IMG/VR virus record: IMGVR_UViG_3300036793_000090
Location: 1-41,142 of that record
Source: a virus
Taxonomy: Duplodnaviria > Caudoviricetes
Strand: one strand, 5' to 3'
Length of the DNA stretch: 41,142 nt
In this document: positions 2,144-37,817 of the stretch, one piece after another
How positions within the stretch are numbered: the stretch's first letter is position 1
Layout of the letters: each line of letters starts with the position of its first letter
Translations under genes and position numbers: made by a program
Notes under the pieces: generated by a model
Database searches by the model: none
Told to the model about the DNA's origin: nothing
Seen by the model: only the letters and a program-made list of their open reading frames with translations

Positions 2144-3220
2144 CTAGAGCAGTCCGAACTTACTCATCTCGTCCATTAGCAGGGTCGCGTGATTGTCGAA
2201 TGTGCGATCCTTGACAGCTTGACGGGCGCACTCTCCGAGGTACCGGGATTCTTTCTGGTTATTGAGGTAAGCCTTCAGCAAGTCGGCAGCTTCTTCTACT
2301 GACTTAAAGGTAGGAAGGAACGGGAAAAGCTCGTCTGACTCTCCGCGTGCATCGCGAACCCACGGGATACCGCAGGCCGCCAGTTCTACCTCACGCGGGC
2401 CGATAGCCCATCCCTCGCCGTCGTGGATCTTCTCTGACTCGCGCCGGTAGAAATTGATTCCCACCCTGGAGCGGCGGTAAATGTCAGCGGTATCGGCATT
2501 GCTTACAGCCTCGTCGCGCGGGTGGCCTACGTACCTGAGCAGGGGTGAGCCGTTCAGGTGCTCTCCGTCCCAGGCACAGCCGCCCAGCGCTATCTGGTAC
2601 TTGTCCGCGTCGATGTGCGTGAACAGTTCCTCGAAGAACTTACGCCGGGAGTCGAAAATCGTGCCGATGAACGTGAAGTCGATGTCCTTGTCCTTAACCA
2701 CACCCGGGTAATGAATGTCCGGGTCGTAGGCGTGCGGCATGTACATAGCCGGGGCGAGGGCGGCGTACTCTTCCAGGTTCACCGGGTCGTTAAGCAGGTT
2801 AAGCGTGGCGTACTGAGCCCGCATCAACTGCTCGTCGTCCTGGTACGGAGACTCTGTGTGCAAGATCACGAGCTTGTGCCGGCGCTGCCTGATCAGGTCC
2901 ATTACCCACGCCGGGGTAAAGAACGCCGACACGAAGAACACCATGTGTGGCCATACCGAGTACAGGTCGTGGGTCAGTCCCTGCATCGACGCGGTTACGG
3001 CGTCTTCCTTGGACATCGCCTTGCGCCACGGGACGAGCCCGGTCTCAGGGTCGGCCTCGGCTCCGTAGTCAGGAATCGATACCTGGCTGTAGAAGCTGAG
3101 ACGGTCGTTGGTATTGAATACGGCGACTTCATGGCCCTGCTTCTCGAACGCCTTCTTCCACCCGTTGAATACGTCGGCCACAGAGAACTCGGGGCCAGGG
3201 TGGACCATCAGGATTCGCAA
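2144..3220 (-). CDS. Glycosyltransferase, GT-B (CgeB/Glyco_trans_1_2-like)
   Basis: TTG start after GAGGAG; 'MPHAYDPDIHYP', 'DFTFIGT', 'GPREVELAACG'. Confidence 0.75.
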   Translation of the reverse strand: MRILMVHPGPEFSVADVFNGWKKAFEKQGHEVAVFNTNDRLSFYSQVSIPDYGAEADPETGLVPWRKAMSKEDAVTASMQGLTHDLYSVWPHMVFFVSAFFTPAWVMDLIRQRRHKLVILHTESPYQDDEQLMRAQYATLNLLNDPVNLEEYAALAPAMYMPHAYDPDIHYPGVVKDKDIDFTFIGTIFDSRRKFFEELFTHIDADKYQIALGGCAWDGEHLNGSPLLRYVGHPRDEAVSNADTADIYRRSRVGINFYRRESEKIHDGEGWAIGPREVELAACGIPWVRDARGESDELFPFLPTFKSVEEAADLLKAYLNNQKESRYLGECARQAVKDRTFDNHATLLMDEMSKFGLL

Positions 3221-3372
3221 GGCTTCTCCTCGGGTTCCGGTACTTCGGTATCGCCGTAATGGCAGCAGCCTTCGCTCTGGTGCAGTACGGCGCAGCTCTG
3301 GTTCCTGATACGCCACCAGCGACAGCAGCGGGGACACTGAAGCACCATAGGCTGGCGGTCGTAAAGATGCAT
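3208..3372 (-). CDS. Small Cys-rich hypothetical protein (54 aa)
   Basis: ATG coupled to upstream TGA; MHLYDRQPMVLQCPRCC...EGCCHYG; fills the gap exactly. Confidence 0.5.
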   Translation of the reverse strand: MHLYDRQPMVLQCPRCCRWWRIRNQSCAVLHQSEGCCHYGDTEVPEPEEKPCES

Positions 3373-15636: not shown

Positions 15637-15846
15637 TCAGAGTTCCCTGCCAACGCGGGCAAACCAGGACATAGCCGCCTCGATAGCCGCGTCCATCGGC
15701 CCCTGGCCTAGCACGTGCGCGCTGGGGCCGGTGATGCGGACTACGAAGCCGTCGTCAACCTGGGCAGCTTCGGCACGATGGCCCTCGGGAAGAACCTCTC
15801 CTACGTCAACCCAGTGCCACGCGTGGTCTTCTACGGGAATAGTCAT
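15637..15846 (-). CDS. Hypothetical protein
   Basis: Coupled to upstream stop. Confidence 0.55.
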   Translation of the reverse strand: MTIPVEDHAWHWVDVGEVLPEGHRAEAAQVDDGFVVRITGPSAHVLGQGPMDAAIEAAMSWFARVGREL

Positions 15847-16913
15847 CAGTCGTCAATCAGCCACTGGGGGTGCTCCAGGGTCCATTTCACCGTGCGCCGC
15901 AGGGACTCGCGGAACGGCACGGGCATCGACCATCCCAGCGACATGATCTTAGACGGGTCCAGGCCGTAGTGCGGGTCGTGACCGGGACGCGTGGTGTGGA
16001 AGTCCTCCAGCCGGTACTTCAGCGGCTTGCCGATGTCTTCCGCGATCATCTTCGCCAGGGTCAGGTTGTCTATCCTGTCCGGCGAGGCGATGTTGTAGCG
16101 GTCGGGGCGGTCATTGACAGGCTGGCTGTCGTAGCTCTTGTGCGCCGGGAATACGGTGGGATCGGTGTGCTCCAGCAGGAAGAGGCTGGCGTCGGCCACG
16201 TTGCGGGCATGCAGGTAGTGCCGCGTGCCGATATTGCCCTCGGAGCCGTGAATTGTTATCAGCTCGCCCTTGGCTACCTTCGCGATTACCCGGGGAATGA
16301 ACTTTTCCAGATCCTGCCGTTCCCCGATCATGTTCATGATGTTGAGGATGACCACCGGGACGCCGTAAGTGCGCCAGTAGGAGATGGCGATGTCTTCCTG
16401 GGCGGCCTTGGAGCCCGAGTACGGGTTCGAGGGAAGGATTACGTCCCATTCCGGGTGGCCCTTGAAATCGTCAGCGGCCACCGGCCCGTAAACCTCGTCA
16501 GTGCTGACCCAGATAACTGCCTTGGGCTTTAGCACGCGGGCCAGTTCCAGGGTATTCAGGGCGACTTCGGTGTTGTTCCGGATGAACGGGGCCGGGTCGG
16601 TGATAGAGCGGTCTACGTGGCTCTCCGACGCGATGGCGGCTATGTAGTCGATCTCGCCTATGCGCGCAGCTTCCCGGGCCGTGAACGGGGCCAGCAGGTC
16701 GTGAGTGATCACGTCGATGCGCTCACCCCACCACGGACGTGCAGATGAGAAGTCATCGTGAGAATGCAGCACTTCCGCGATCCGGTCATTAGTGCCTTTG
16801 TGCCGGAATGAGTCTGTGAGCACGCAGTCCCAGTCGGTACTGGACAGTACATGCTCAAGGAAGTGGTGGCCCACGAACCCGCCGGCCCCGGTAATGAGAA
16901 TCCGCTTAGTCAC
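15846..16913 (-). CDS. NDP-sugar 4,6-dehydratase (RmlB-like extended SDR)
   Basis: 'GAGGFVG', 'ASESHVDRS', 'STDEVYG', 'YSGSK', 'RPGHD'. Confidence 0.9.
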   Translation of the reverse strand: MTKRILITGAGGFVGHHFLEHVLSSTDWDCVLTDSFRHKGTNDRIAEVLHSHDDFSSARPWWGERIDVITHDLLAPFTAREAARIGEIDYIAAIASESHVDRSITDPAPFIRNNTEVALNTLELARVLKPKAVIWVSTDEVYGPVAADDFKGHPEWDVILPSNPYSGSKAAQEDIAISYWRTYGVPVVILNIMNMIGERQDLEKFIPRVIAKVAKGELITIHGSEGNIGTRHYLHARNVADASLFLLEHTDPTVFPAHKSYDSQPVNDRPDRYNIASPDRIDNLTLAKMIAEDIGKPLKYRLEDFHTTRPGHDPHYGLDPSKIMSLGWSMPVPFRESLRRTVKWTLEHPQWLIDD

Positions 16914-17916
16914 TGGTTAGCTCCGTCCAGGTACGCATCGCACGAGCCAGCTTATACCAGTAGTACTTGTGACCGTGGTCTTCCTGGGCAAAGTCTTCCA
17001 CTGAGTTCGCCAGGGCCAGGTAGCAGGTTCCCGCGTCGTCATAAGAGCTGATGTCAGCGGAAGCGACGTGCCGCCAGAACTTCTCGTGGACTTCGATTCC
17101 CGGCGCTTCCTTGATAACGCGCTCCTGCGGGTCAGATTCCTTGGTGTGCACGATGCTCGGGTACCCGGAAGTAACCAGCCAGCCCATCTGATCCGCGATC
17201 CGCTTGACGAACAGGCCGGCCCAGATGTCATCGAACCTATCGAACGGGAGCTTCTTCAGTCCCTGGCTCGTGCGCTCGTGACCCTGGAGCATGAAGTACA
17301 TCGCCGGAAGTACCTCGGGCGCGAAAGCCAGGTTCATCCCGCACATGGGGAACAGCTTGCCGTGCGGAATAATGCTCACGTCGGCGGCAGGCCCGGTACG
17401 AAAAGCGGGGTGATCTAGCGCGGTAACGCCGTCCAGGTCGGGAATATTCGACCAGAGCCCGTGGATCACCCTCACCGGCTTAAACTTCCTGATCTCATAG
17501 GGGTACCCCCGGGGGAACAGGCCGGATTCCGGCGGCAGCGTGTTTACCCATTCCTGCTCGCTGTACTTGTAGGTCAGCATGCACTCGAACTGGTAAGGAT
17601 ATTCCTGCCAGCGCGGCTCGGGAAAGCAGTCGTCGTCCAGGGTCCAGGTTACTTCGCCCTTTGCCCTCAGGAACCCGTAGCTCTTAACGGCCGAGCTGCG
17701 CCGGGGGATGATCCACGAGTCGCCGCCGAGATCACGGTCGATGTCGTCCCAGGCATAGTGCTCGAACTGGTCATAGCCAGACGTGTCCAGCTCGAACGAT
17801 TTAGAGGGGCTGTCCTCTACCAGGATTACCCGGCAGCCCCCGAGCTGGCTTCGCCAGGCTTCCAGCCAGCGTTTCATGGAAGCCTCGCGGCAGGAGGCGA
17901 TTACGATGGTTGTCAT
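16906..17916 (-). CDS. UDP-arabinopyranose mutase / reversibly glycosylated polypeptide (GT75)-like protein
   Basis: 'LDDDC', 'RGYPY', 'HGLWSNIPDLD', 'PMCGMNLAF', 'RFDDIWAG' match the RGP/UAM family signature. Confidence 0.8.
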   Translation of the reverse strand: MTTIVIASCREASMKRWLEAWRSQLGGCRVILVEDSPSKSFELDTSGYDQFEHYAWDDIDRDLGGDSWIIPRRSSAVKSYGFLRAKGEVTWTLDDDCFPEPRWQEYPYQFECMLTYKYSEQEWVNTLPPESGLFPRGYPYEIRKFKPVRVIHGLWSNIPDLDGVTALDHPAFRTGPAADVSIIPHGKLFPMCGMNLAFAPEVLPAMYFMLQGHERTSQGLKKLPFDRFDDIWAGLFVKRIADQMGWLVTSGYPSIVHTKESDPQERVIKEAPGIEVHEKFWRHVASADISSYDDAGTCYLALANSVEDFAQEDHGHKYYWYKLARAMRTWTELTSD

Positions 17917-18572
17917 CCGAGCGGCGCTCCGTGGTGGTATCCGTTGAGCCTGAAGGTCCCGGTGGGCTTGGCTGCCCATGGTACACCTGCTGCGGCCCAG
18001 CGCGTTAGCATCTGGCCGTCTCCCTCGTAGCCGTCCCTGGGGTCGAAGCCGCCGTGCGTCATCACGAGGCGGGCACGGTGCATAAGTCCGGAGGTGTCCG
18101 CGTGCCCTACCGCAGGAATAGGACTTATCTCGTGGCCCTCCCAGCCGCTCAGCGCGAACTCGATGTGCGGGTGATCCTGGAACAGGGCTACCATCTCGGC
18201 AATGTGCGTCTCCGCGTAGTCGTTGTCGTCGTCCAAGTACGCCACCAGGTCCCCTGTGGCAAGCAGAGAGCCAGCGAGGCGGGCGGTAGCCCCGAACCCG
18301 CAGAGAAAGCCCGTGTTTCCCCCGTAGCCTGCTGCCTGGTAGAGAGGAGTCCAGTTACGCCCGAGCGCCACGAACCTGCGGGGGGACTGGCCGTCGCCGC
18401 TGTAGCCCAGGCTGCGCAGCATGTCCTCGGTAGCCTGGTCGTCACCGTCGATTACCACGAGGTGCTGGAGATTGGAGTACGTCTGCCGGTCAATAGACGC
18501 ACAGGCGTGGTCCCTGATCGTAGTCGGACGCTGCCAGGATGACGTGACTACGGTTACGAGAGGATCATTCAC
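17913..18572 (-). CDS. Glycosyltransferase family 2 (GT-A)
   Basis: 'PLVTVVT', 'QTYSN', 'VIDG', 'VAYLDDDN'. Confidence 0.85.
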   Translation of the reverse strand: MNDPLVTVVTSSWQRPTTIRDHACASIDRQTYSNLQHLVVIDGDDQATEDMLRSLGYSGDGQSPRRFVALGRNWTPLYQAAGYGGNTGFLCGFGATARLAGSLLATGDLVAYLDDDNDYAETHIAEMVALFQDHPHIEFALSGWEGHEISPIPAVGHADTSGLMHRARLVMTHGGFDPRDGYEGDGQMLTRWAAAGVPWAAKPTGTFRLNGYHHGAPLG

Positions 18573-19588
18573 TGAAACAGCCTTTCATATGCCTTTTCCC
18601 ATTTATGCCAATTGGCTTCTACGGTAAAGGCCGAGGCGTGCACTTTACCTTTTTCGCCCATTTCCTTACGAAGGTCAGGATTATCCGCCAGCAGGCGAAT
18701 GTACTTCATCCAGTCATGAGGGCTTTGATTCTTCACCAGGAAGCCGTTCTCCCCGTGCACGATGTACTCGCGGTACGGCTGTACATCAGAGGCAATAACT
18801 GGGATACCGCGTGCGTTGTACTCCAGCGTTTTCAGCGCCGACTTCGAACGGCTGAATGTCGTATCCTTCAACGGGACAATGCCTATGTCGAAGTCAATGG
18901 ACTCATAGTAGGCGCGCTCGTCGTCATTGATTTGCTTCCATCCGGAGTAGATCATCTGGTCCCAGTTTCGAGCGTTAAATGACGGGCGGTAATCGGTGCC
19001 TCCGACAAGTAGGTCCCAGTTGTCGTTCTTAGCAAGGAACCGGCGGACGGGCTGAGCCGCCTCGTGAATATCCAGGCCGTGACTTGCCCCTCCTATCCAG
19101 CCGAGCCTCGGACGGCGATTAGTTTCCTTCGGCAAGTCCAGTACATACTCGGGAACGCAGTTCGGCAGCACGGCAACGTTCTTGCACTCGTGGCCCCGGT
19201 GAAGCTGCGCCAGCGTCTCGGTTGTCACTGTTACCAGGTCAGCGGTCTGACTGTACCCCTCGATGGATTCCCGCACGGTAGGTTCGCTATACCGCTGGTA
19301 AGCTGCCCAGTTCACCTTTTCGACATTGAACAGGTCATCGTCAGTTTCGTAGACAAGCCGGTTATGAGGTTTCCGCGCACGCCGCCACATCGACATCCCG
19401 TTGTATCCAGCGAGCCGCTGACAGGCCAGCACGTCATAATCACTAGCGTTGCGGATGTGCTCAATAGTCTCTGTGTCCGACGTGTTGCTGAAGGTGACCT
19501 CATGCCCGTGCTTTGCAAGCTCGCGAAGGGGCTGAACCATCCGGACGTGCCCGCATCCCAGGCCGTCGTTTGCTGCGAGGATCTTCAC
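18569..19588 (-). CDS. Glycosyltransferase, GT-B (GT4-like)
   Basis: 'YETDDDL', 'DIGIVPL...KS.LK.LEY...GIPVIAS', 'HGENGFLV'. Confidence 0.85.
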   Translation of the reverse strand: MKILAANDGLGCGHVRMVQPLRELAKHGHEVTFSNTSDTETIEHIRNASDYDVLACQRLAGYNGMSMWRRARKPHNRLVYETDDDLFNVEKVNWAAYQRYSEPTVRESIEGYSQTADLVTVTTETLAQLHRGHECKNVAVLPNCVPEYVLDLPKETNRRPRLGWIGGASHGLDIHEAAQPVRRFLAKNDNWDLLVGGTDYRPSFNARNWDQMIYSGWKQINDDERAYYESIDFDIGIVPLKDTTFSRSKSALKTLEYNARGIPVIASDVQPYREYIVHGENGFLVKNQSPHDWMKYIRLLADNPDLRKEMGEKGKVHASAFTVEANWHKWEKAYERLFQ

Positions 19589-31150: not shown

Positions 31151-32824
31151 ATGGTTGCCGTTGCTATCGACTACGAAGAGGAAATCTTCGGAAACCAGAT
31201 GCCTCGGCTGTGGACAGCGCCGGACAGGCACCGGGATGAAACTGACGGCTGCAAGTCGTGTGCGATATCAGACGACGGCCTTGGCGGGATAGGCTGCGGC
31301 AATTACCTAGCCACGGAAATGCTCGACTGGGCTCGGGGATTCGGGTACAAGGCCGACCCGTGGCAGGAATGGGTCATGCGGGAAGCCTGCGGCACGCGGC
31401 CTGACGGCAAGTGGGCTAGCTTTGAGAATGACCTTATCGTTAGCCGGCAGAACGGAAAGGGCACGATCCTCGAAATCCGCGAGCTGGCGGGCATGTTCGT
31501 CTTGGGCGAGGAACTGATCATCCATACCGCCCACGAGCTGAAGACCGCGCAGGAGCACTTCCGCCGCGTCGTGTCCACGGTCGAGAACTATCCCGCGCTG
31601 TCGCGCCGCCTCAAGGGCAAGCCGCGTGCGTCCCACGGTGAAGAAGCGATCGAGCTGATATCCGAGCCGACACTTATCTTCGGCTCCGGACGCAGGCGCA
31701 TGTACAAGAAGGTCGGCCCGCGACTCCGCTTCCTGGCCCGCTCGCGCGGTAGCGCCCGTGGATTCACCTGCAACTGCCTGATCTACGACGAGGCGATGAT
31801 CCTCTCGGCTGAGGCGGTCGGCGCATCCATGCCCACGATGGCCGCCGTGCCCAACTCCCAGATGTGGCTCACCGGCTCGGCCGGCCTGGAAGACTCTGAG
31901 CAGCTTGCGCGCTCGCGCCGCCGTATCGTGCACAACACCAAAGACCTGTTCGGCGCTGAGTGGTCGGTACGGCCTCACCTGGTTACCTGCCCCGTAGACC
32001 GCGAGAACGGCCGGACTACGAACAACTACGTCGTGTGCGAGGAGCACGACGACCGCGACGACCCGGTTGCATGGGCTAAGGCGAATCCCGCGTTCGGCTA
32101 CCGGCTGTCGGCAGAGTTCACCAAGAACGAGATGGCGACGCTGGCGACCGTAGAATTCGACCGCGAGCGGCTGGGCGTCGGCCAGTGGCCTGCGGAAGAC
32201 GAGGCGTGGCGCGTCGTGTCAGAAGACTTGTTTAAGTCTTTGACACTGGAGAACCCCGGCAACATCCCGGCTGGCGGCCAGCTCGCCTTTGCCCTGGACG
32301 TCGATGAGGGCGGCGCTAACTCCACGATCGCGGTGAGCTGGACCCACAAGGACGGCTGCCTGGTCATGGAGATCCCGAAGAACTGCTCGCGGCCGGGCAC
32401 CGACTGGGTAGTTGACCGCCTGGAAGAACTCGTGAAGAAGTACCACCCGCTGGCGATCGTGGCACCGAGGAACGGTCCAGCGGCCGGCCTCGGTGACGAC
32501 CTGGAGAAGCTGTGGCCCAAGCACCACAAGTTCGGCTCCCGCCTGATCCGCACCGGCCCTGCCGACGAGGCTGCGGCGTTCGCCTGGTTCGTACAGCAGT
32601 GCAAGAGCGAGAACAAGCCCCTGAGGCACCTGGGCGAGAAGAAGGGGTACAAGCTCTGGCACGCCGTGGGAACGGCTGAGAAGCGCGTTGTGGGCGACGG
32701 AGGGGAAACCTGGAGCCGCCGGGACAGTACCACCGACATCACGCCGGCTACGGCATGCAACCTCGCGGCATGGGGACTGAACAAGAAGCGCAGGAACTAC
32801 GACCTGCTTGCATCGGTTCGCTAG
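31151..32824 (+). CDS. terL: Terminase large subunit
   Basis: 'PWQ', Walker A 'SRQNGKG', Walker B 'LIYDEA', 'WAKANPA', 'FDRERLG'; leaderless after TGnTACTAT. Confidence 0.95.
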   Translation: MVAVAIDYEEEIFGNQMPRLWTAPDRHRDETDGCKSCAISDDGLGGIGCGNYLATEMLDWARGFGYKADPWQEWVMREACGTRPDGKWASFENDLIVSRQNGKGTILEIRELAGMFVLGEELIIHTAHELKTAQEHFRRVVSTVENYPALSRRLKGKPRASHGEEAIELISEPTLIFGSGRRRMYKKVGPRLRFLARSRGSARGFTCNCLIYDEAMILSAEAVGASMPTMAAVPNSQMWLTGSAGLEDSEQLARSRRRIVHNTKDLFGAEWSVRPHLVTCPVDRENGRTTNNYVVCEEHDDRDDPVAWAKANPAFGYRLSAEFTKNEMATLATVEFDRERLGVGQWPAEDEAWRVVSEDLFKSLTLENPGNIPAGGQLAFALDVDEGGANSTIAVSWTHKDGCLVMEIPKNCSRPGTDWVVDRLEELVKKYHPLAIVAPRNGPAAGLGDDLEKLWPKHHKFGSRLIRTGPADEAAAFAWFVQQCKSENKPLRHLGEKKGYKLWHAVGTAEKRVVGDGGETWSRRDSTTDITPATACNLAAWGLNKKRRNYDLLASVR

Positions 32825-32997
32825 GAAAAATAACGGCCTGTGTCCTTATACAGGAGCTTCTTCATGTGCTTGCGCTTGTAATAGACACGGATAAGGTTTG
32901 AGCTAAACCCTCTGCTGACGGTTATCTTCGTCCCGTCAAGATCGTCCAGTAGCAAGTGAATGTTCCGAGCCGGGATGGACTTCACTACGGTAGCCAT
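32821..32997 (-). CDS. Small basic hypothetical protein (58 aa)
   Basis: MATVVKSIPARNIHLL...; ATG 9 nt after ECF-type -10. Confidence 0.55.
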   Translation of the reverse strand: MATVVKSIPARNIHLLLDDLDGTKITVSRGFSSNLIRVYYKRKHMKKLLYKDTGRYFS

Positions 32998-33006
32998 ATC
33001 AGTAGT

Positions 33007-33032
33007 AACTAGCGTTCGTAGTCAGCTATTCC
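33007..33032 (-). promoter_or_regulatory. ECF sigma (SigR/SigH-like) promoter
   Basis: GGAAT-N18-GTT. Confidence 0.65.
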
Positions 33033-33035
33033 CTA

Positions 33036-33116
33036 GGTGGAGCTGCACGGAATCGAACCGTGGTCCGGGTGGTCTCCGCATGCGGCCTCACTCACCAGTC
33101 GAAACCTTCCAGCCCC
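33036..33116 (-). ncRNA. Miniature tmRNA-like RNA (tRNA-like domain only, no tag ORF)
   Basis: 5' GGGGCUGGAAGGUUUCGAC and 3' GGAC-CACGG-UUCGAUU-CCGUG-CAGCUCC-ACC; G3.U70; only ~30 nt between the ends. Confidence 0.85.
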
Positions 33117-33139
33117 TCAACCCACAGTGGTGAGCTTCG

Positions 33140-33208
33140 TAGTCCTACCGAGAGTCGAACTCGGACGCCGCATTTAGGGGACGCAGGTACAGGTCCGCTG
33201 TCAGGACT
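33140..33208 (-). tRNA. tRNA-Arg(CCU), non-canonical
   Basis: Acceptor AGUCCUG/UAGGACU; 6-bp anticodon stem, loop CC-CCU-AA; tiny D arm. Confidence 0.6.
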
Positions 33209-33209
33209 A

Positions 33210-33283
33210 TGGACGGAGATATCGGATTCGAACCGATGTGACGAGGGTTGCAATCTCGTACCTAGCCTCTCGGACAATCTCCG
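33210..33283 (-). tRNA. tRNA-Cys(GCA)
   Basis: Loop UU-GCA-AC; U73; encoded CCA. Confidence 0.85.
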
Positions 33284-33289
33284 TAAAGT

Positions 33290-33356
33290 ACGCTCGTCGG
33301 GAGTCGAACCCGATATGCATCCTTCGAAGGGATGCAGACCCGTCCGGGGACGAGCG
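33290..33356 (-). tRNA. tRNA-Arg(UCG), non-canonical
   Basis: Acceptor CGCUCGU/ACGAGCG; 7-bp anticodon stem, loop CU-UCG-AA; tiny D arm. Confidence 0.65.
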
Positions 33357-33361
33357 TAAAG

Positions 33362-33438
33362 TACTGGCAGCAGGAGTCGAACCTACACAGCCGAAGCGAC
33401 AGATTTACAGTCTGCGATGATCGCCAATTCGTACCAGC
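33362..33438 (-). tRNA. tRNA-Tyr(GUA)
   Basis: Loop CU-GUA-AA; variable arm; weak D stem. Confidence 0.8.
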
Positions 33439-33439
33439 A

Positions 33440-33515
33440 TGGAGGGTCGTGCGGGATTCGAACCCGCCAATAACAGCTTCACGGACTGCTTCCTCAGCCA
33501 CTTGGATCACGACCC
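33440..33515 (-). tRNA. tRNA-His(GUG)
   Basis: Loop CC-GUG-AA; encoded CCA; lacks G-1:C73. Confidence 0.75.
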
Positions 33516-33588
33516 GGTACCTAATGAAGGAATCGAACCTTCATCCTCGCTTTGTAAGAGCGTCACTCTCCCATTGAGCTAATCAGGC
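33516..33588 (-). tRNA. tRNA-Val(UAC)
   Basis: Loop CU-UAC-AA. Confidence 0.9.
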
Positions 33589-33635
33589 TTGGAAGGCCCC
33601 GGTGCTTACCCTCTATAGCAGCGGCCAGGGCCTTG

Positions 33636-33709
33636 TATCGCCTAAGGGACTCGAACCCCTACTCTCCTGGTTCGTAGCCAGGTGCATTATTCCATTCTGC
33701 TAAGGCGAC
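33636..33709 (-). tRNA. tRNA-Arg(ACG)
   Basis: Loop CU-ACG-AA. Confidence 0.9.
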
Positions 33710-33710
33710 G

Positions 33711-33783
33711 CGGTGCGTACCGGATTTGAACCGGCGGCTTCTGCCGTGACAGGGCAGCACTCTGACCACTGAGTTAACACACC
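33711..33783 (-). tRNA. tRNA-Asp(GUC)
   Basis: Loop CU-GUC-AC; G73. Confidence 0.9.
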
Positions 33784-33834
33784 TTGGTCTGGGTATTTTT
33801 TAGTATTTGGCCTCGCGCCCCCAGCGGCGCTGTG

Positions 33835-33906
33835 CTCTCGTACCTGGATTCGAACCAAGGACGCGTTGGTTAACGGCCAACCGCTCTACCTCTGAGCTAT
33901 ACGAGA
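33835..33906 (-). tRNA. tRNA-Asn(GUU)
   Basis: Loop CC-GUU-AA; G73. Confidence 0.9.
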
Positions 33907-33939
33907 ATGGTGGCCTTTTAACGTCCTGCCCGGGACGAG

Positions 33940-34012
33940 TGGCGGGGCTGGGAATCGAACCCAGAATCTCCAGGCTTATGAGGCCGGTAACTTACCGTTT
34001 GTCCACCCCGCA
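33940..34012 (-). tRNA. tRNA-Met(CAU), initiator-like
   Basis: Loop CU-CAU-AA; 1:72 mismatch; A11-U24. Confidence 0.8.
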
Positions 34013-34013
34013 G

Positions 34014-34085
34014 TAGTCCCACAGGGAGTCGAACCCTGTTCCTGAGAGTGAAAATCTCAGATCCTAACCCATAGACGATGGGACC
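34014..34085 (-). tRNA. tRNA-Glu(UUC)
   Basis: Loop UU-UUC-AC. Confidence 0.9.
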
Positions 34086-34105
34086 TTTGTTCTTACATTG
34101 TAGCG

Positions 34106-34179
34106 TGCTCCGTATCGGATTCGAACCGATGATCTCGCTGGCTGAGAACCAGGAATCCTGACCGCTAGACCAACGGAGC
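34106..34179 (-). tRNA. tRNA-Glu(CUC)
   Basis: Loop UU-CUC-AG. Confidence 0.85.
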
Positions 34180-34326
34180 ATAAGTGACAGCTTTTCCCGT
34201 TTACTGGCGCTGGGCGGCGCTCCGAACGTGACTAAGGAGTAGGTTTAAGGGACTTACGATCGCATTACGGCAGGGCTAGCCTGCGGCGGTACACGTTCCC
34301 AAGTATCAGCCCTGCTGTCAACCTCG

Positions 34327-34402
34327 TAACGACGGTGGGATTCGAACCCACGAGTTTGCCGGATTATGAGCCCGGTCGCTTAGACCACTTGCATACGTCG
34401 CA
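34327..34402 (-). tRNA. tRNA-Met(CAU)
   Basis: Loop CU-CAU-AA; U1.U72 mismatch; initiator vs elongator unclear. Confidence 0.8.
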
Positions 34403-34403
34403 G

Positions 34404-34475
34404 TGCCTCCCGAAGGATTCGAACCCTCAGCTCGCGGGGTAAAAGCCCTGGATGTTGCCATTACACCAGAGAGGC
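34404..34475 (-). tRNA. tRNA-Lys(UUU)
   Basis: Loop CU-UUU-AC; imperfect anticodon stem. Confidence 0.8.
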
Positions 34476-34476
34476 G

Positions 34477-34550
34477 TAAGCTCGGCGGGAATCGAACCCA
34501 GCTACCACCCGCTTATAAGACGGGCGCACATACCAGCGTGCTTCGAGCTA
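34477..34550 (-). tRNA. tRNA-Ile(UAU)
   Basis: Loop CU-UAU-AA. Confidence 0.75.
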
Positions 34551-34551
34551 G

Positions 34552-34624
34552 TACCGACTCTGAGAATCGAACTCAGCGCAGTGACCTTATCAGAGTCACC
34601 GTATCGACCAGATATCCAATCGGC
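34552..34624 (-). tRNA. tRNA-Ile(GAU)
   Basis: Loop CU-GAU-AA. Confidence 0.8.
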
Positions 34625-34632
34625 TTGTAAAG

Positions 34633-34716
34633 CGGAAGGCAGAGGTGTCGAGCCCCCAGGGGTTGCCCCCTGTACTCGCTTTCGAGGCGAGGTGCAGCGC
34701 CGGCCGCATGCCCCCC
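34633..34716 (-). tRNA. tRNA-Ser(CGA), 8/4 fold
   Basis: Loop CU-CGA-AA; long variable arm; 8-bp acceptor, 4-bp T stem. Confidence 0.75.
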
Positions 34717-34815
34717 ATTTGCAGCTACTGGTTGAACTCCCCAGTCTTTCCAGCTTCGGTTAGGCGAGCCCCGGTTTATTAGGATCGCGCACACCAGGCC
34801 GCTGCCGTGCCTGAG

Positions 34816-34904
34816 AGGATGATGCGAGAGTCGAACTCGCGAGGAGGCGTAAACCCCCTACCAACTTTCCAAGCTGGCGCAATAGGCCACTATGCGAATC
34901 ATCC
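34816..34904 (-). tRNA. tRNA-Ser(GGA)
   Basis: Loop UU-GGA-AA; long variable arm. Confidence 0.9.
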
Positions 34905-34955
34905 ATGCCGGGCCTGGCTTCCGGTGGACCCAATTTGGGAGCCTGCCAGGCCCCG

Positions 34956-35040
34956 CCGAAGATAGAGTACTCGAAACTCAGGGCGTTACCACCCCCATCT
35001 CGCTAGCAACGAGCGGCCGGCCCTGCCGACTTTACCTCCG
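34956..35040 (-). tRNA. tRNA-Ser(GCU), 8/4 fold
   Basis: Loop UU-GCU-AG; long variable arm; 8-bp acceptor, 4-bp T stem. Confidence 0.75.
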
Positions 35041-35079
35041 ATGATGCCCCTACTTATATAGCTCCGAGGCGCGAGCTTG

Positions 35080-35162
35080 TACGCGAGACGGGACTCGAAC
35101 CCGTACGCCCTTCCGGGCACTGACTCCTCAAGCCAGCACGTCTTCCATTTCATCACTCGCGC
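35080..35162 (-). tRNA. tRNA-Leu(GAG)
   Basis: Loop UU-GAG-GA; long variable arm. Confidence 0.9.
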
Positions 35163-35216
35163 ATAAGCCTCAGGGTTTTTAATCCCACCTTCCATACCAG
35201 GTACCTGAGCGGGTAG

Positions 35217-35287
35217 TGCGGTAACCGGGGCTCGAACCCGGACCCCGAACTTGGCAAGCTCGGATGATTCCCTTTCACCATTACCAC
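35217..35287 (-). tRNA. tRNA-Gly(GCC)
   Basis: Loop UU-GCC-AA. Confidence 0.9.
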
Positions 35288-35333
35288 AAGACTCCCAGAA
35301 GGTTATTTCCGGACCTGTAAGCTGGGAGCAAAG

Positions 35334-35407
35334 AGCCTACTGTGAGATTCGAACTCACGACCTGTGCCTTACCATGGCACCGCTCTAACCACTGGAGCTA
35401 AATAGGC
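35334..35407 (-). tRNA. tRNA-Thr(GGU)
   Basis: Loop AU-GGU-AA. Confidence 0.9.
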
Positions 35408-35408
35408 G

Positions 35409-35484
35409 TGGAGCCAATCATCGGACTTGAACCGATAACCTTCGCTTTACAAGAGCGCCGCTCTGCCGTTGGAGCTAGATTGGC
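35409..35484 (-). tRNA. tRNA-Thr(UGU)
   Basis: Loop CU-UGU-AA; encoded CCA. Confidence 0.9.
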
Positions 35485-35548
35485 ATGTTGAAGTGTTAAT
35501 TAACCGAGATGCTTCACCCTCGGGCGATACGCTGTTACGCGCTCTACG

Positions 35549-35623
35549 TACCCCATGCGGGATTCGAACCCGCAGCATCAGGATTTCTGAGACCCTGTGG
35601 TCTGCCAGTTGCCATAACGGGGC
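35549..35623 (-). tRNA. tRNA-Leu(CAG), short variable region
   Basis: Loop CU-CAG-AA; 6-bp anticodon stem; no long variable arm. Confidence 0.75.
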
Positions 35624-35624
35624 G

Positions 35625-35697
35625 TGCGCCAGAAGTGTTCCAGCCTGGAGGGATTCGAACCCCCACTTCTGACTTAGAGGGTTTGCAACCCCTCTCG
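35625..35697 (-). ncRNA. Rearranged tRNA-like RNA with a canonical T arm
   Basis: Hairpin AGAGGG/CCCUCU, then 10-bp stem GUCAGAAGUG/CACUUCUGGC enclosing a UUCGAAU T arm. Confidence 0.5.
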
Positions 35698-35770
35698 CTA
35701 CCCACCCTGGATTCGAACCAGGAATCGCCTGCATCAGACGCAGGAGCCTTGCCTGTTTGGCCAGTGGGCA
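35698..35770 (-). tRNA. tRNA-Gln(CUG)
   Basis: Loop GU-CUG-AU; U1-A72, G73. Confidence 0.85.
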
Positions 35771-35771
35771 T

Positions 35772-35848
35772 TGGTACTCAGGGCGGGATTTGAACCCGCA
35801 GCATCAGGAGTTTTGAATCCCCGTGGTCTGCCAGTTGCCTACCCGAGC
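35772..35848 (-). tRNA. tRNA-Leu(CAA), short variable region
   Basis: Loop UU-CAA-AA; D and T regions nearly identical to Leu(CAG); encoded CCA. Confidence 0.75.
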
Positions 35849-35849
35849 G

Positions 35850-35921
35850 TACCCCCACAGGGAATTGAACCCCGCTCCTCTGATTAAGAGTCAGATGCAT
35901 CTGCCGCAATGCTTTGGAGGC
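35850..35921 (-). tRNA. tRNA-Lys(CUU)
   Basis: Loop CU-CUU-AA. Confidence 0.9.
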
Positions 35922-35994
35922 ATGACCCGCGTATTTTATTTTATATACCGCCCGCAATTGGGTCAGCGGTAGGTCCCTGTGCACCGGAACCAAG

Positions 35995-36068
35995 AGCCAG
36001 CCATCGGAGTCGAACCGATAACCTGCCGATTACGAAACGGCTGCTCTAGCCATTGGAGCTAGGCTGGC
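35995..36068 (-). tRNA. tRNA-Thr(CGU)
   Basis: Loop UU-CGU-AA. Confidence 0.9.
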
Positions 36069-36145
36069 ATATGGAGAGCTTTGACCCTCACCCGCACGGT
36101 CTATCGCGAATGCCGTGTAATGGGTACTCTCCGTGAAAGGGTCCG

Positions 36146-36217
36146 TGAGGTAGGTGGGAGTCGAACCCACAGTGCCACATTGGAAGTGTGGGAGTTTAGC
36201 CGTTAACTGACTACCCC
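36146..36217 (-). tRNA. tRNA-Gly(UCC)
   Basis: Loop CU-UCC-AA. Confidence 0.85.
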
Positions 36218-36218
36218 G

Positions 36219-36290
36219 TGGTACCCGCTGGTAACGATCCAGCCTCTCAGGCTTTTCAGGCAAGCGCTAATCCATCTTAGCTAGAGCACC
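36219..36290 (-). tRNA. tRNA-Phe(GAA)
   Basis: Loop CU-GAA-AA; atypical T loop AUCGUUA; mismatched anticodon stem. Confidence 0.75.
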
Positions 36291-36329
36291 ATGTTCCCCC
36301 GTTTTTAACGTCCTGGTCAGGCGGACTCG

Positions 36330-36402
36330 TCGGGAACCCCGGAGTCGAACCGGGTTTCTCTTGCATCCCGAGCAAGCAGATTAACCGTCTTCCTCGCTCC
36401 CG
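36330..36402 (-). tRNA. tRNA-Pro(GGG)
   Basis: Loop UC-GGG-AU; C1-G72, A73. Confidence 0.85.
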
Positions 36403-36488
36403 ATGTCCGGTTTTCGCCGGGGGTGATCAGCCCCTAGCCTGGAGGCACCGTATCCAGTTTCGGCAGGTGATTCCGGAGGTCTCCTGCC

Positions 36489-36583
36489 TGGGTGCTCGTC
36501 GGCTCGCCGCTCTCCCCATTGAGCTACGCACCCGGTTAAGGGTGCGGCAGGACTCGAACCCGCATCTGCTTACCTGTGAGCAC
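36489..36583 (-). ncRNA. Y RNA (YrlA)-like permuted tRNA mimic
   Basis: Order T arm, loop-closed acceptor stem, D arm, all inside terminal stem GUGCUC/GAGCAC; no anticodon loop. Confidence 0.75.
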
Positions 36584-36586
36584 TTG

Positions 36587-36658
36587 TCGGGTACCTGGGA
36601 GTCGAACCCAGTGTCTCTTCGATCCGAACGAAGCAGATTTCCGTCTTCCTCGCACCCG
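36587..36658 (-). tRNA. tRNA-Pro(CGG)
   Basis: Loop UU-CGG-AU; C1-G72, A73. Confidence 0.85.
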
Positions 36659-36843
36659 TCGGCGGTCTAACATCAAGTTCAGGTATTCTCAGGGGACTAA
36701 TCCTGAGAAAACGCTCGGCTGGCCCTCGATCGCGGGCAATCAACGTGTTGGCACCCTGCATGACGGCGGGAGAAAGACCGCAGAAACCTTATTCCCGCTT
36801 TATCCGCTACCCTCAGCCAGTCACGGCCTACTCTCGCAGAATG

Positions 36844-36915
36844 TGGAGATGATGGGATTCGAACCCACATGTGACTGCTTGCAAAACAGTTGCTTCCCTG
36901 TCAGGCCACATCCCC
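36844..36915 (-). tRNA. tRNA-Ala(UGC)
   Basis: Loop UU-UGC-AA; G3.U70. Confidence 0.9.
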
Positions 36916-37071
36916 ATGTGGGAGCCGGATGGAAGCCGACTCCCGTATTCGTAGTCATTGGCTGGAGGACCGTCTGACTACGAAGCTTTTTCTATGCTCA
37001 CCACTGTGGAGTTGTCTAGTATCAAGTCCGTTCACATCTCTGCCCGCGAAGGTTTCGGTAGTGGGACTAAG

Positions 37072-37143
37072 CACGCCGCCGAGGAGTCGAACCCCGACCA
37101 AGAGGTTTGGAAGCTCTTGTGCTAGCCGTTACACCAGCGGCAT
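37072..37143 (-). tRNA. tRNA-Trp(CCA)
   Basis: Loop UU-CCA-AA; G73. Confidence 0.85.
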
Positions 37144-37177
37144 ATGTAGTTGTTGTCCTGCGGTTGTGCCCTCTTAC

Positions 37178-37203
37178 AACGAAGGCCCCGTCCCGGTTAT
37201 TCC
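37178..37203 (-). promoter_or_regulatory. ECF sigma (SigR/SigH-like) promoter driving the tRNA array
   Basis: GGAAT-N18-GTT ending 35 nt before the first tRNA. Confidence 0.7.
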
Positions 37204-37341
37204 GGAGCGAGGCCCTAGTTTCGAGAAATTTTCTCGTCTAGGTCCGCTCCCTAAGAGGCTGGTTCCAGGCATCGCAGCCGGCCGGTCGGGGCATGTGCCC
37301 GAACAGCTTGGCGGTGGCGATCTCTGAACTCATGACCCCAT

Positions 37342-37542
37342 CTAAGCACGGTCACCGGAGGATGTCAAACCGGATTTCCGGGCCGCCTGGCGGTACCTCT
37401 CGACCGTACGCACAGTCACGCCCAGGCGCTTGGCGATCTGCGAGGCCGACAGTCCCTGGTCAGTGAGGAACTGCGTGTCCTCGATCCCGCCTAGCCTCTG
37501 CTCGGTGCGGGCGGCGTTCATCGCCTCGATGGTGCTTCTCAT
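37342..37542 (-). CDS. Small HTH DNA-binding protein
   Basis: 'QGLSASQIAKRLGVTVRTVERYR'. Confidence 0.8.
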   Translation of the reverse strand: MRSTIEAMNAARTEQRLGGIEDTQFLTDQGLSASQIAKRLGVTVRTVERYRQAARKSGLTSSGDRA

Positions 37543-37817
37543 GGCTTGGCCGCCGCATCACGCAGGCGCTGAAGGTACCGCTGCTGGTTCGCGGCGGCTT
37601 CCGCGTTGACCTTCCAGTGCTTTTTCTTCATCGGTCGCCACTTGTCGCCCATGCATACCATGCCGACCTTGCAGCCGGGGCAGACAGGGGTACCTTCCCA
37701 TGGTGCCTTGCAGACGTGCCCGCAGGTCGCGCAGCACCACTTCGCCTTGGGGCCTGACTTGCAGTCCCGGCACGGACGCGTCCACGACCAGCTACGGTCC
37801 CAGTATCCCTTAGCCAT
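37539..37817 (-). CDS. Cys-rich (zinc-finger-like) hypothetical protein
   Basis: Three CxxC pairs; coupled to both neighbours. Confidence 0.6.
   Translation of the reverse strand: MAKGYWDRSWSWTRPCRDCKSGPKAKWCCATCGHVCKAPWEGTPVCPGCKVGMVCMGDKWRPMKKKHWKVNAEAAANQQRYLQRLRDAAAKP

Follow-up and report, generated by a model that had tools for sequence, protein, structure and literature searches.

What is the short RNA gene that closes a phage tRNA array, and what could a tmRNA without a message do for a phage? The window, by which we mean the whole 41,142-nt virus record analysed here, encodes capsid, portal, prohead protease and terminase proteins. Its terminase best matches those of actinobacterial phages (30–36% identity) and its capsid those of Streptococcus, Rhizobium and Streptomyces phages (about 29% identity). 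These matches suggest that the host is likely actinobacterial and do not single out Streptomyces. The gene for the large terminase subunit (31151–32824, plus strand) lies on the strand opposite portal and capsid and converges on a tRNA array. Downstream of the capsid gene (15846–19588 and 2144–3337, minus strand) are genes for an epimerase, a reversibly glycosylated polypeptide (UDP-sugar mutase type) and glycosyltransferases, which we take to resemble the virion-glycosylation modules of actinophages.

The array stops 23 nt upstream of an 81-nt gene on the same strand, the last of its RNA genes and likely part of the same transcript. A scan for a σ70 promoter belonging to the gene itself returned one site in 5 kb, against 1.9 expected. 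Several features of the surrounding sequence deserve mention in their own right. The ARAGORN call at 34476–34550 (minus strand) is a tRNA-Ile whose anticodon, UAU, is rare in bacteria. A tRNA-like sequence at 33140–33208 (minus strand), read by eye, has a 7-bp acceptor stem, a T arm and a CCU (Arg) anticodon, but its position 33 is C and its D arm is weak; it is missed by Rfam and by ARAGORN, also at the relaxed score. Just downstream of the 81-nt gene, a short motif (33014–33030, minus strand) is shared with the two closest relatives (L367 and L023) and was not found in the rest of the family. The further flanks differ among the three phages, and the motif could be part of a promoter or the start of a decayed small open reading frame (ORF).

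The 81-nt gene encodes the tRNA-like domain of a tmRNA without a tag frame, as the first-pass annotation of this sequence had proposed; the minus-strand sequence quoted there is an exact match. G1 lies at 33116 and the second C of the encoded CC at 33036, with the terminal A of CCA absent from the DNA. The ends are as canonical as had been claimed: a 7-bp acceptor stem with G3–U, the discriminator A, a D loop ending in UCGAC, a GGAC connector and a T arm are all present. The Rfam tmRNA model RF00023 aligns at both ends with its middle deleted (53.5 bits, E = 3.1e-19 on a 6-kb stretch), which is the large gap between matched ends that had been anticipated, and 312 middle positions of the model face 21 nt of the RNA. 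On a 256-base stretch the score is 44.9 bits, below the gathering cut-off of 47 bits, and the gene is not in the RF00023 gathering list of the whole-window search. ARAGORN misses it at default settings and miscalls it as tRNA-Ala(tgc) at the relaxed score, which is why such genes stay unannotated. No tag-like frame was found at 32000–37600 of the window. The features of the locus are as follows.

33036..33116, minus strand: tag-less mini-tmRNA gene, 81 nt encoded (79 nt to the discriminator A, plus CC); RF00023 match
33110..33116, minus strand: 5′ strand of the acceptor stem, with G3 of the G3–U70 alanine identity pair; RF00023 alignment and pairing counts
33099..33109, minus strand: stemless D loop, with equivalents of E. 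coli tmRNA U17, C18 and G19 (SmpB contacts); mapped by alignment
33090..33098, minus strand: 5′ strand of helix P2a; family pairing and covariation
33086–33089, minus strand: purine-rich internal loop before the apical hairpin
33076..33085, minus strand: apical 3-bp hairpin with a CAUG loop, which caps the arm at the normal site of pseudoknots and tag frame
33066..33073, minus strand: 3′ strand of helix P2a; family pairing and covariation
33063..33065, minus strand: GAC connector, its A equivalent to E. coli A334; mapped by alignment
33046..33062, minus strand: T arm, 5 bp and a 7-nt loop; RF00023 alignment and covariation
33036..33045, minus strand: 3′ strand of the acceptor stem, with the U70 equivalent, discriminator A and encoded CC
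33140..37143, minus strand: co-oriented tRNA array, 27 genes at the ARAGORN default and more at the relaxed score

Other classes of RNA were considered and set aside. The 5′-then-3′ order had been taken to rule out a permuted two-piece tmRNA, and the permuted model (RF04321) indeed gives only a partial-model match of 16.1 bits; records that carry the short form have a single RF00023 match in 44 of 46 cases. A tRNA-Ala is contradicted by the lack of a D stem and by an apical loop of 4 nt rather than a 7-nt anticodon loop, and reading the apical NGC as an alanine anticodon fails because an additional base disrupts NGC in 14 of the 50 C-N-N-G loops. No Rfam Y RNA matched up to E = 10, and the TROVE domain of Ro60, the partner of bacterial Y RNA, was not found among the 49 ORFs of the window, which may be a partial contig.

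Between the two tRNA-like halves lies a structured spacer of 31 nt. A spacer of about 30 nt had been predicted correctly; the length that it stands for is about 290–310 nt (full-length spacers were searched at 295–325 nt) and not about 270 nt. In the window copy the first variable pair of P2a is a U–C mismatch and one A is bulged out, and this single RNA folds no better than its shuffles (z = −0.85). The structural claim therefore rests on covariation across the family.

In a pattern search of IMG/VR that asked for both tRNA-like ends and a spacer of 18–48 nt, 87 of 92 distinct sequences had spacers of 27–33 nt. P2a pairs 1–4 hold in 88, 89, 87 and 86 of 90 distinct sequences, a set restricted by the search expression to spacers of 24–34 nt, with outliers dropped (shuffled means 38–42, maxima 53–56). 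For 36 sequences picked for equal D-loop length, with the inner T-stem bases fixed by the pattern and kinship ignored, 97.1% of paired cells are complementary against 72.0% in shuffles, 17 of 23 pairs show changes on both sides, and slid controls drop to 39–51%. Same-length homologues with covariation, which the first-pass annotation had put forward as a check, are thus present. A non-circular scan that used no anchors but the hairpin, the connector and the T loop, and whose 119 stretches (about 140 estimated) overlap the first set, found the acceptor 5′ strand 28–36 nt upstream in 81 of 81 distinct sequences, with G3–U70 in 80, A73 in 81 and UCGAC in 75; the lone G3–U70 exception is a one-base deletion. 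A 3-bp hairpin occurs in the spacer of 84 of 90 sequences, 45 of them with a CCG/CGG stem. Its loop starts with C-N-N-G in 50 of the 84, and the bases that precede the hairpin are mostly A; C-N-N-G loops closed by G–C are stable tetraloops. A loop–loop dimer through a palindromic tip is disfavoured, as the CACG loop, which is not self-complementary, occurs nearly as often (13) as CAUG does (16).

The spacer is accordingly a covarying helix, an A-rich loop and a small hairpin, not a decayed remnant. The remnant suggested earlier captured a real resemblance (a GCAUG-like motif stands at offset 21–22 in 37 of 99 full-length tmRNAs), but in the short form this region is the hairpin that caps a covarying helix. 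Conservation of this kind points to strong purifying selection on the family. A decaying pseudogene, attachment-site remnant or assembly deletion could be argued from the P2a mismatch in the window copy and from mycobacteriophage records that matched the 3′ end only, some of them intergenic. Against it stand the narrow spacer range within the wide one allowed, the mere 12 stretches with spacers of 49–79 nt in the whole IMG/VR collection, the covariation of the spacer helix and the recurrence of the short form in contigs from three further studies. Runs from four studies were compared. One of them spans the stretch and may be the source of the record. In one of the other three, a contig spans 33003–33316 with no change within the gene; in another, one contig runs across 33006–33168; and in the third, two contigs match 33036–33116 only and continue into unrelated flanks, which marks the edges of the gene. 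These comparisons bear on the presence of the gene and say nothing about its expression. Artefact or decay is already largely refuted, and we regard it as extremely improbable.

How widespread is the short form? A BLAST search of a phage collection gave 79 records, of which five cover at least 80% of the query: Streptomyces phages LuckySocke, GiJojo and Shaeky, Stenotrophomonas phage Jojan60 and Pontimonas phage phiPsal1. The RNA is unannotated in all five. In GiJojo, a GenBank hypothetical protein (gene 44; L002:5999–6241) is laid over the RNA gene; this ORF may be spurious, because the identical RNA of LuckySocke carries no such feature. The IMG/VR pattern returned 119 stretches (about 220 estimated, from 36 of 64 parts of the collection), and spacers of full length (295–325 nt) about 950 (estimated from 9 of 64 parts); many of the latter lie near record ends on inspection and may be host genes. 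Across 185,579 GTDB genomes we found 29 stretches, 23 of which score at least 50 bits on a model of the family. Four actinobacterial isolates have the short form together with a full-length tmRNA, and the short form therefore does not replace the host gene; in a fifth genome tested, a Halorubrum, the pattern match was false. In all, the partial scans gathered 171 distinct sequences, and the family spans phages of Stenotrophomonas, Pontimonas and Mycobacterium. The window copy scores 85.2 bits on the family model by construction.

Variants and unusual carriers were also seen. Twelve longer message-less forms (L125–L136) have spacers of 50–72 nt and intact tRNA-like ends, and among them L126 appears to be a short form duplicated in part; four shorter ones (L117, L099, L261 and L264) have spacers of 18–23 nt and a P2a capped by a plain loop. 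A complete 124-kb phage (G008 C1) carries a short form (46486–46567, L012) and a full-length tmRNA (77588–77979, L407) whose tag ARAGORN does not identify. One Pseudonocardia isolate (G002) has two different short forms (C99 7886–7968, L285; C30 36375–36457, L408) as well as a full tmRNA.

Genomic context varies across the family. Among 64 viral loci with long flanking sequence, a tRNA lies within 1.4 kb in only 12. A clade of 21 loci (L008, L017, L018, L032 and relatives) and phiPsal1 (L005) have the gene between those for prohead protease and major capsid protein; processing of the RNA at this site would cut the late mRNA. In LuckySocke and GiJojo it lies 5 kb from a Ro-like gene and 2–3 kb from an RNA ligase gene. 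No conserved partner emerged when 1,352 flanking ORFs were clustered, as the groups were confined to single clades; 83 chosen proteins (81 from family loci and 2 from the window) have mixed phage functions with no shared partner. SmpB was not found among the 49 window ORFs scanned. Nor was it found in any of 46 carrier records (40 from IMG/VR, mostly the longest, and 6 from GenBank; 14 rated at least 90% complete and 32 less complete or unrated), and peptidyl-tRNA hydrolase and RF-1/ArfB-family proteins were likewise found in 0 of 46, with controls positive in 10 of 10 bacteria. One of the 46 has a full-length tmRNA besides the short form. A separately encoded message piece was looked for through a resume motif: within 150 nt of the gene, the strict motif occurs in 0 of 114 flank clusters (shuffle mean 0.25) and the loose one in 3 of 114 (shuffle mean 1.8, maximum 5). 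There is no excess of the motif over shuffles that would point to a message piece nearby.

The first-pass annotation had named jakobid mitochondria as the known source of message-less tmRNAs, but a phage precedent is in print. A ‘TLD only’ tmRNA of Mycobacterium phage DS6A (tmRNA Website tmID 11587) is credited to Mao et al. 2009 in the available text of PMC4131195 and PMC11915505. According to excerpts of these papers, the DS6A form acted as an inhibitor of the cell's own tmRNA in E. coli (PMC11915505), whether or not the molecule could be charged, perhaps by titration of SmpB (PMC4131195). Of the 97,179 sequences in the 2025 tmRNA database, 9 are classed as ‘standard, no CDS’ and 79 are phage tmRNAs, and the available text names one phage case of a CDS-less standard tmRNA (PMC11915505). 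We infer that the published element is JN698994.1 28478–28560, because this is the only RF00023 match of DS6A at E ≤ 1e-12. It scores 62.6 bits on a family model built without DS6A, for which weak off-site matches reach at most 31.6 bits and the 3′ ends of full-length tmRNAs 33–35 bits. The DS6A and window elements share length class, order, P2a, the A-rich loop, a CCG-loop-CGG hairpin, G3–U70 and A73, with 53 of 81 positions identical. They differ in that DS6A has GCAC and a longer D loop where the window copy has the canonical GGAC, and in that the DS6A element stands alone beside a DNA polymerase III gene whereas the window copy ends a tRNA array.

With standard tmRNAs (RF00023) the mini-tmRNA has in common the acceptor stem, the D loop, a P2a of 7 bp that starts with tandem G–A/C–G, the A-rich loop after it, the connector and the T arm. 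In full-length tmRNAs, however, that loop sits two to three bases further on. The mini-tmRNA lacks pseudoknots, resume codon, tag frame and stop, and its P2 is capped after about 11 pairs. The tag frame is also absent from organellar CDS-less tmRNAs (mitochondrial RF02544 and the ~65-bp plastid genes of Mallomonadaceae described in the available text of PMC11915505). These are mostly permuted, are the only tmRNA of their organelle and co-occur with imported SmpB, whereas the mini-tmRNA belongs to a virus, is not permuted and exists alongside a complete tmRNA of the host. A capped stem that links 5′ and 3′ ends is likewise present in engineered tRNA-like-domain fragments (Shimizu and Ueda 2006 and Bessho 2007, cited in PMC3929946). 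Those end in a plain UUCG cap, in place of which the mini-tmRNA, a natural RNA under selection, has a conserved internal loop and a hairpin. The window element has a complete tRNA-like domain with its 5′ part before its 3′ part, G3–U70 and A73, no tag frame and a capped P2 arm. By sequence comparison, it belongs to the DS6A type of CDS-less, standard-order tmRNA, a kind that is known and now appears wider than published. We found no paper on a widespread phage family of the short form in a literature search that mostly did not extend to subscription journals.

What might such an RNA do? The reading that we favour, and consider probable if only just, is that this DS6A-type message-less tmRNA, likely charged with alanine, binds host SmpB and competes with host tmRNA, so that proteins from stalled ribosomes would escape the ssrA tag. 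It keeps the complete tRNA-like domain, with helix P2 capped by the hairpin. RNase P and 3′ trimming would release it from the tRNA-array transcript, and the CCA enzyme would add the last A. G3–U70 and A73 suggest charging by the host alanyl-tRNA synthetase; the D loop, the connector and the absence of a phage SmpB suggest that host SmpB and EF-Tu would be taken. As in vitro work on similar fragments indicates, the complex could then enter a ribosome stalled where an mRNA ends, and accept the chain, adding alanine and offering neither tag nor stop codon. Host tagging would drop, with release left to host back-up routes. The SmpB contacts named in an excerpt of PMC8363625 are A15, U17, C18, G19 and A334; mapped on a 363-nt tmRNA, all have kept equivalents except A15, which is U here, as in two actinobacterial host tmRNAs. 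Excerpts of PMC3929946 and PMC2481249 report that SmpB with a tRNA-like-domain fragment supports peptidyl transfer and makes template-free polyalanine in vitro.

Several points count against competition with host tmRNA. Growth of phage lambda-immP22 needs host trans-translation (PMC2862035, in part), so blocking it can harm a phage. The charge-independence of the inhibition described for DS6A (PMC4131195, excerpt) means that charging may serve another end. As none of the 46 carrier records was found to encode peptidyl-tRNA hydrolase or an RF-1/ArfB-family protein, the model offers no phage-encoded route by which the ribosome would be freed. The mismatch and bulge in P2a and the unremarkable fold of the window copy also weigh against it, and the conserved hairpin has no role in the model.

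Near-invariant alanine identity argues against a pure sponge that would bind SmpB, and perhaps EF-Tu, without ever transferring alanine on the ribosome: G3–U70 and A73 (80–81 of 81) are kept more strictly than the UCGAC loop (75 of 81), although a sponge would not need them. The inhibition without charging, put down to possible SmpB titration in PMC4131195, the lack of a phage SmpB in the carriers and the retained contacts speak for a sponge, which we nonetheless think rather improbable. The same alanine identity leaves open a productive, tag-free rescue in which the RNA, with host SmpB, would attach one or more alanines in a template-free manner and help to free stalled ribosomes for phage translation. 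A similar proposal exists for message-less mitochondrial tmRNA; polyalanine synthesis in vitro (PMC3929946 and PMC2481249, in part) and the report that alanine tails are a ClpXP degron in Bacillus (PMC8012679, in part) fit this idea, and a location in a tRNA array or in late operons would suit a translation helper. The inhibitory effect reported for the DS6A form (PMC4131195 and PMC11915505, excerpts), the missing stop codon and the absence of a release factor or hydrolase from carriers weigh against productive rescue, which we hold to be unlikely. A bolder and more doubtful version has the RNA and host SmpB append alanine tails without a template on whole 70S ribosomes, as a counterpart of RqcH made of RNA. 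A phage signal would then replace the ssrA tag and decide which stalled proteins are degraded, and the conserved A-rich loop and hairpin would steer passage through the ribosome.

Two further explanations look elsewhere than trans-translation. The RNA might act as a counter-defence decoy or spare, drawing off nucleases or sensors that the host directs against tmRNA or tRNA in the course of infection. For CoCoNuT systems, binding of tmRNA by way of SmpB-like domains has been predicted (PMC11090510, excerpt), and the gene lies among tRNAs in the window and near Ro-like and RNA ligase genes in LuckySocke and GiJojo. The rarity of tRNAs at other loci and the lack of a conserved partner gene count against a decoy, as does the fact that the defence link is itself a prediction, and we rate it as quite improbable. 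Alternatively, the tRNA-like fold might mark phage operons for cutting by RNase P, for example at the junction of prohead protease and capsid. That position in the 21-locus clade and phiPsal1 is consistent with such a mark, as is the rarity of G at position −1 (7 of 114), but the window copy ends a tRNA array and a processing site needs neither G3–U70 nor the D loop of tmRNA. This makes a processing mark very unlikely.

It had also been suggested that the RNA matters to a phage whose ribosomes stall at TTA codons. This link is unsupported. TTA codons are absent from the capsid, portal, protease and terminase genes and present in few other ORFs, and tRNA-Leu(UAA) is not among the 36 relaxed ARAGORN calls in the window. 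We reject the idea, given these four genes free of TTA, a likely actinobacterial host that need not be Streptomyces and a family that extends to phages of other bacteria; with carriers on hosts outside Streptomyces, TTA stalling cannot be the general reason for the gene.

What had been an oddity of DS6A is a common, unannotated phage gene, with 171 distinct sequences compared with 9 CDS-less standard entries in the 2025 database. The role of a message-less tmRNA is also a question in mitochondria and plastids, and it is directly testable in cultured carriers on laboratory hosts: LuckySocke (Streptomyces lividans), GiJojo, Shaeky and Jojan60. If the proposed function is true, phages would target ribosome rescue by means of an RNA mimic.
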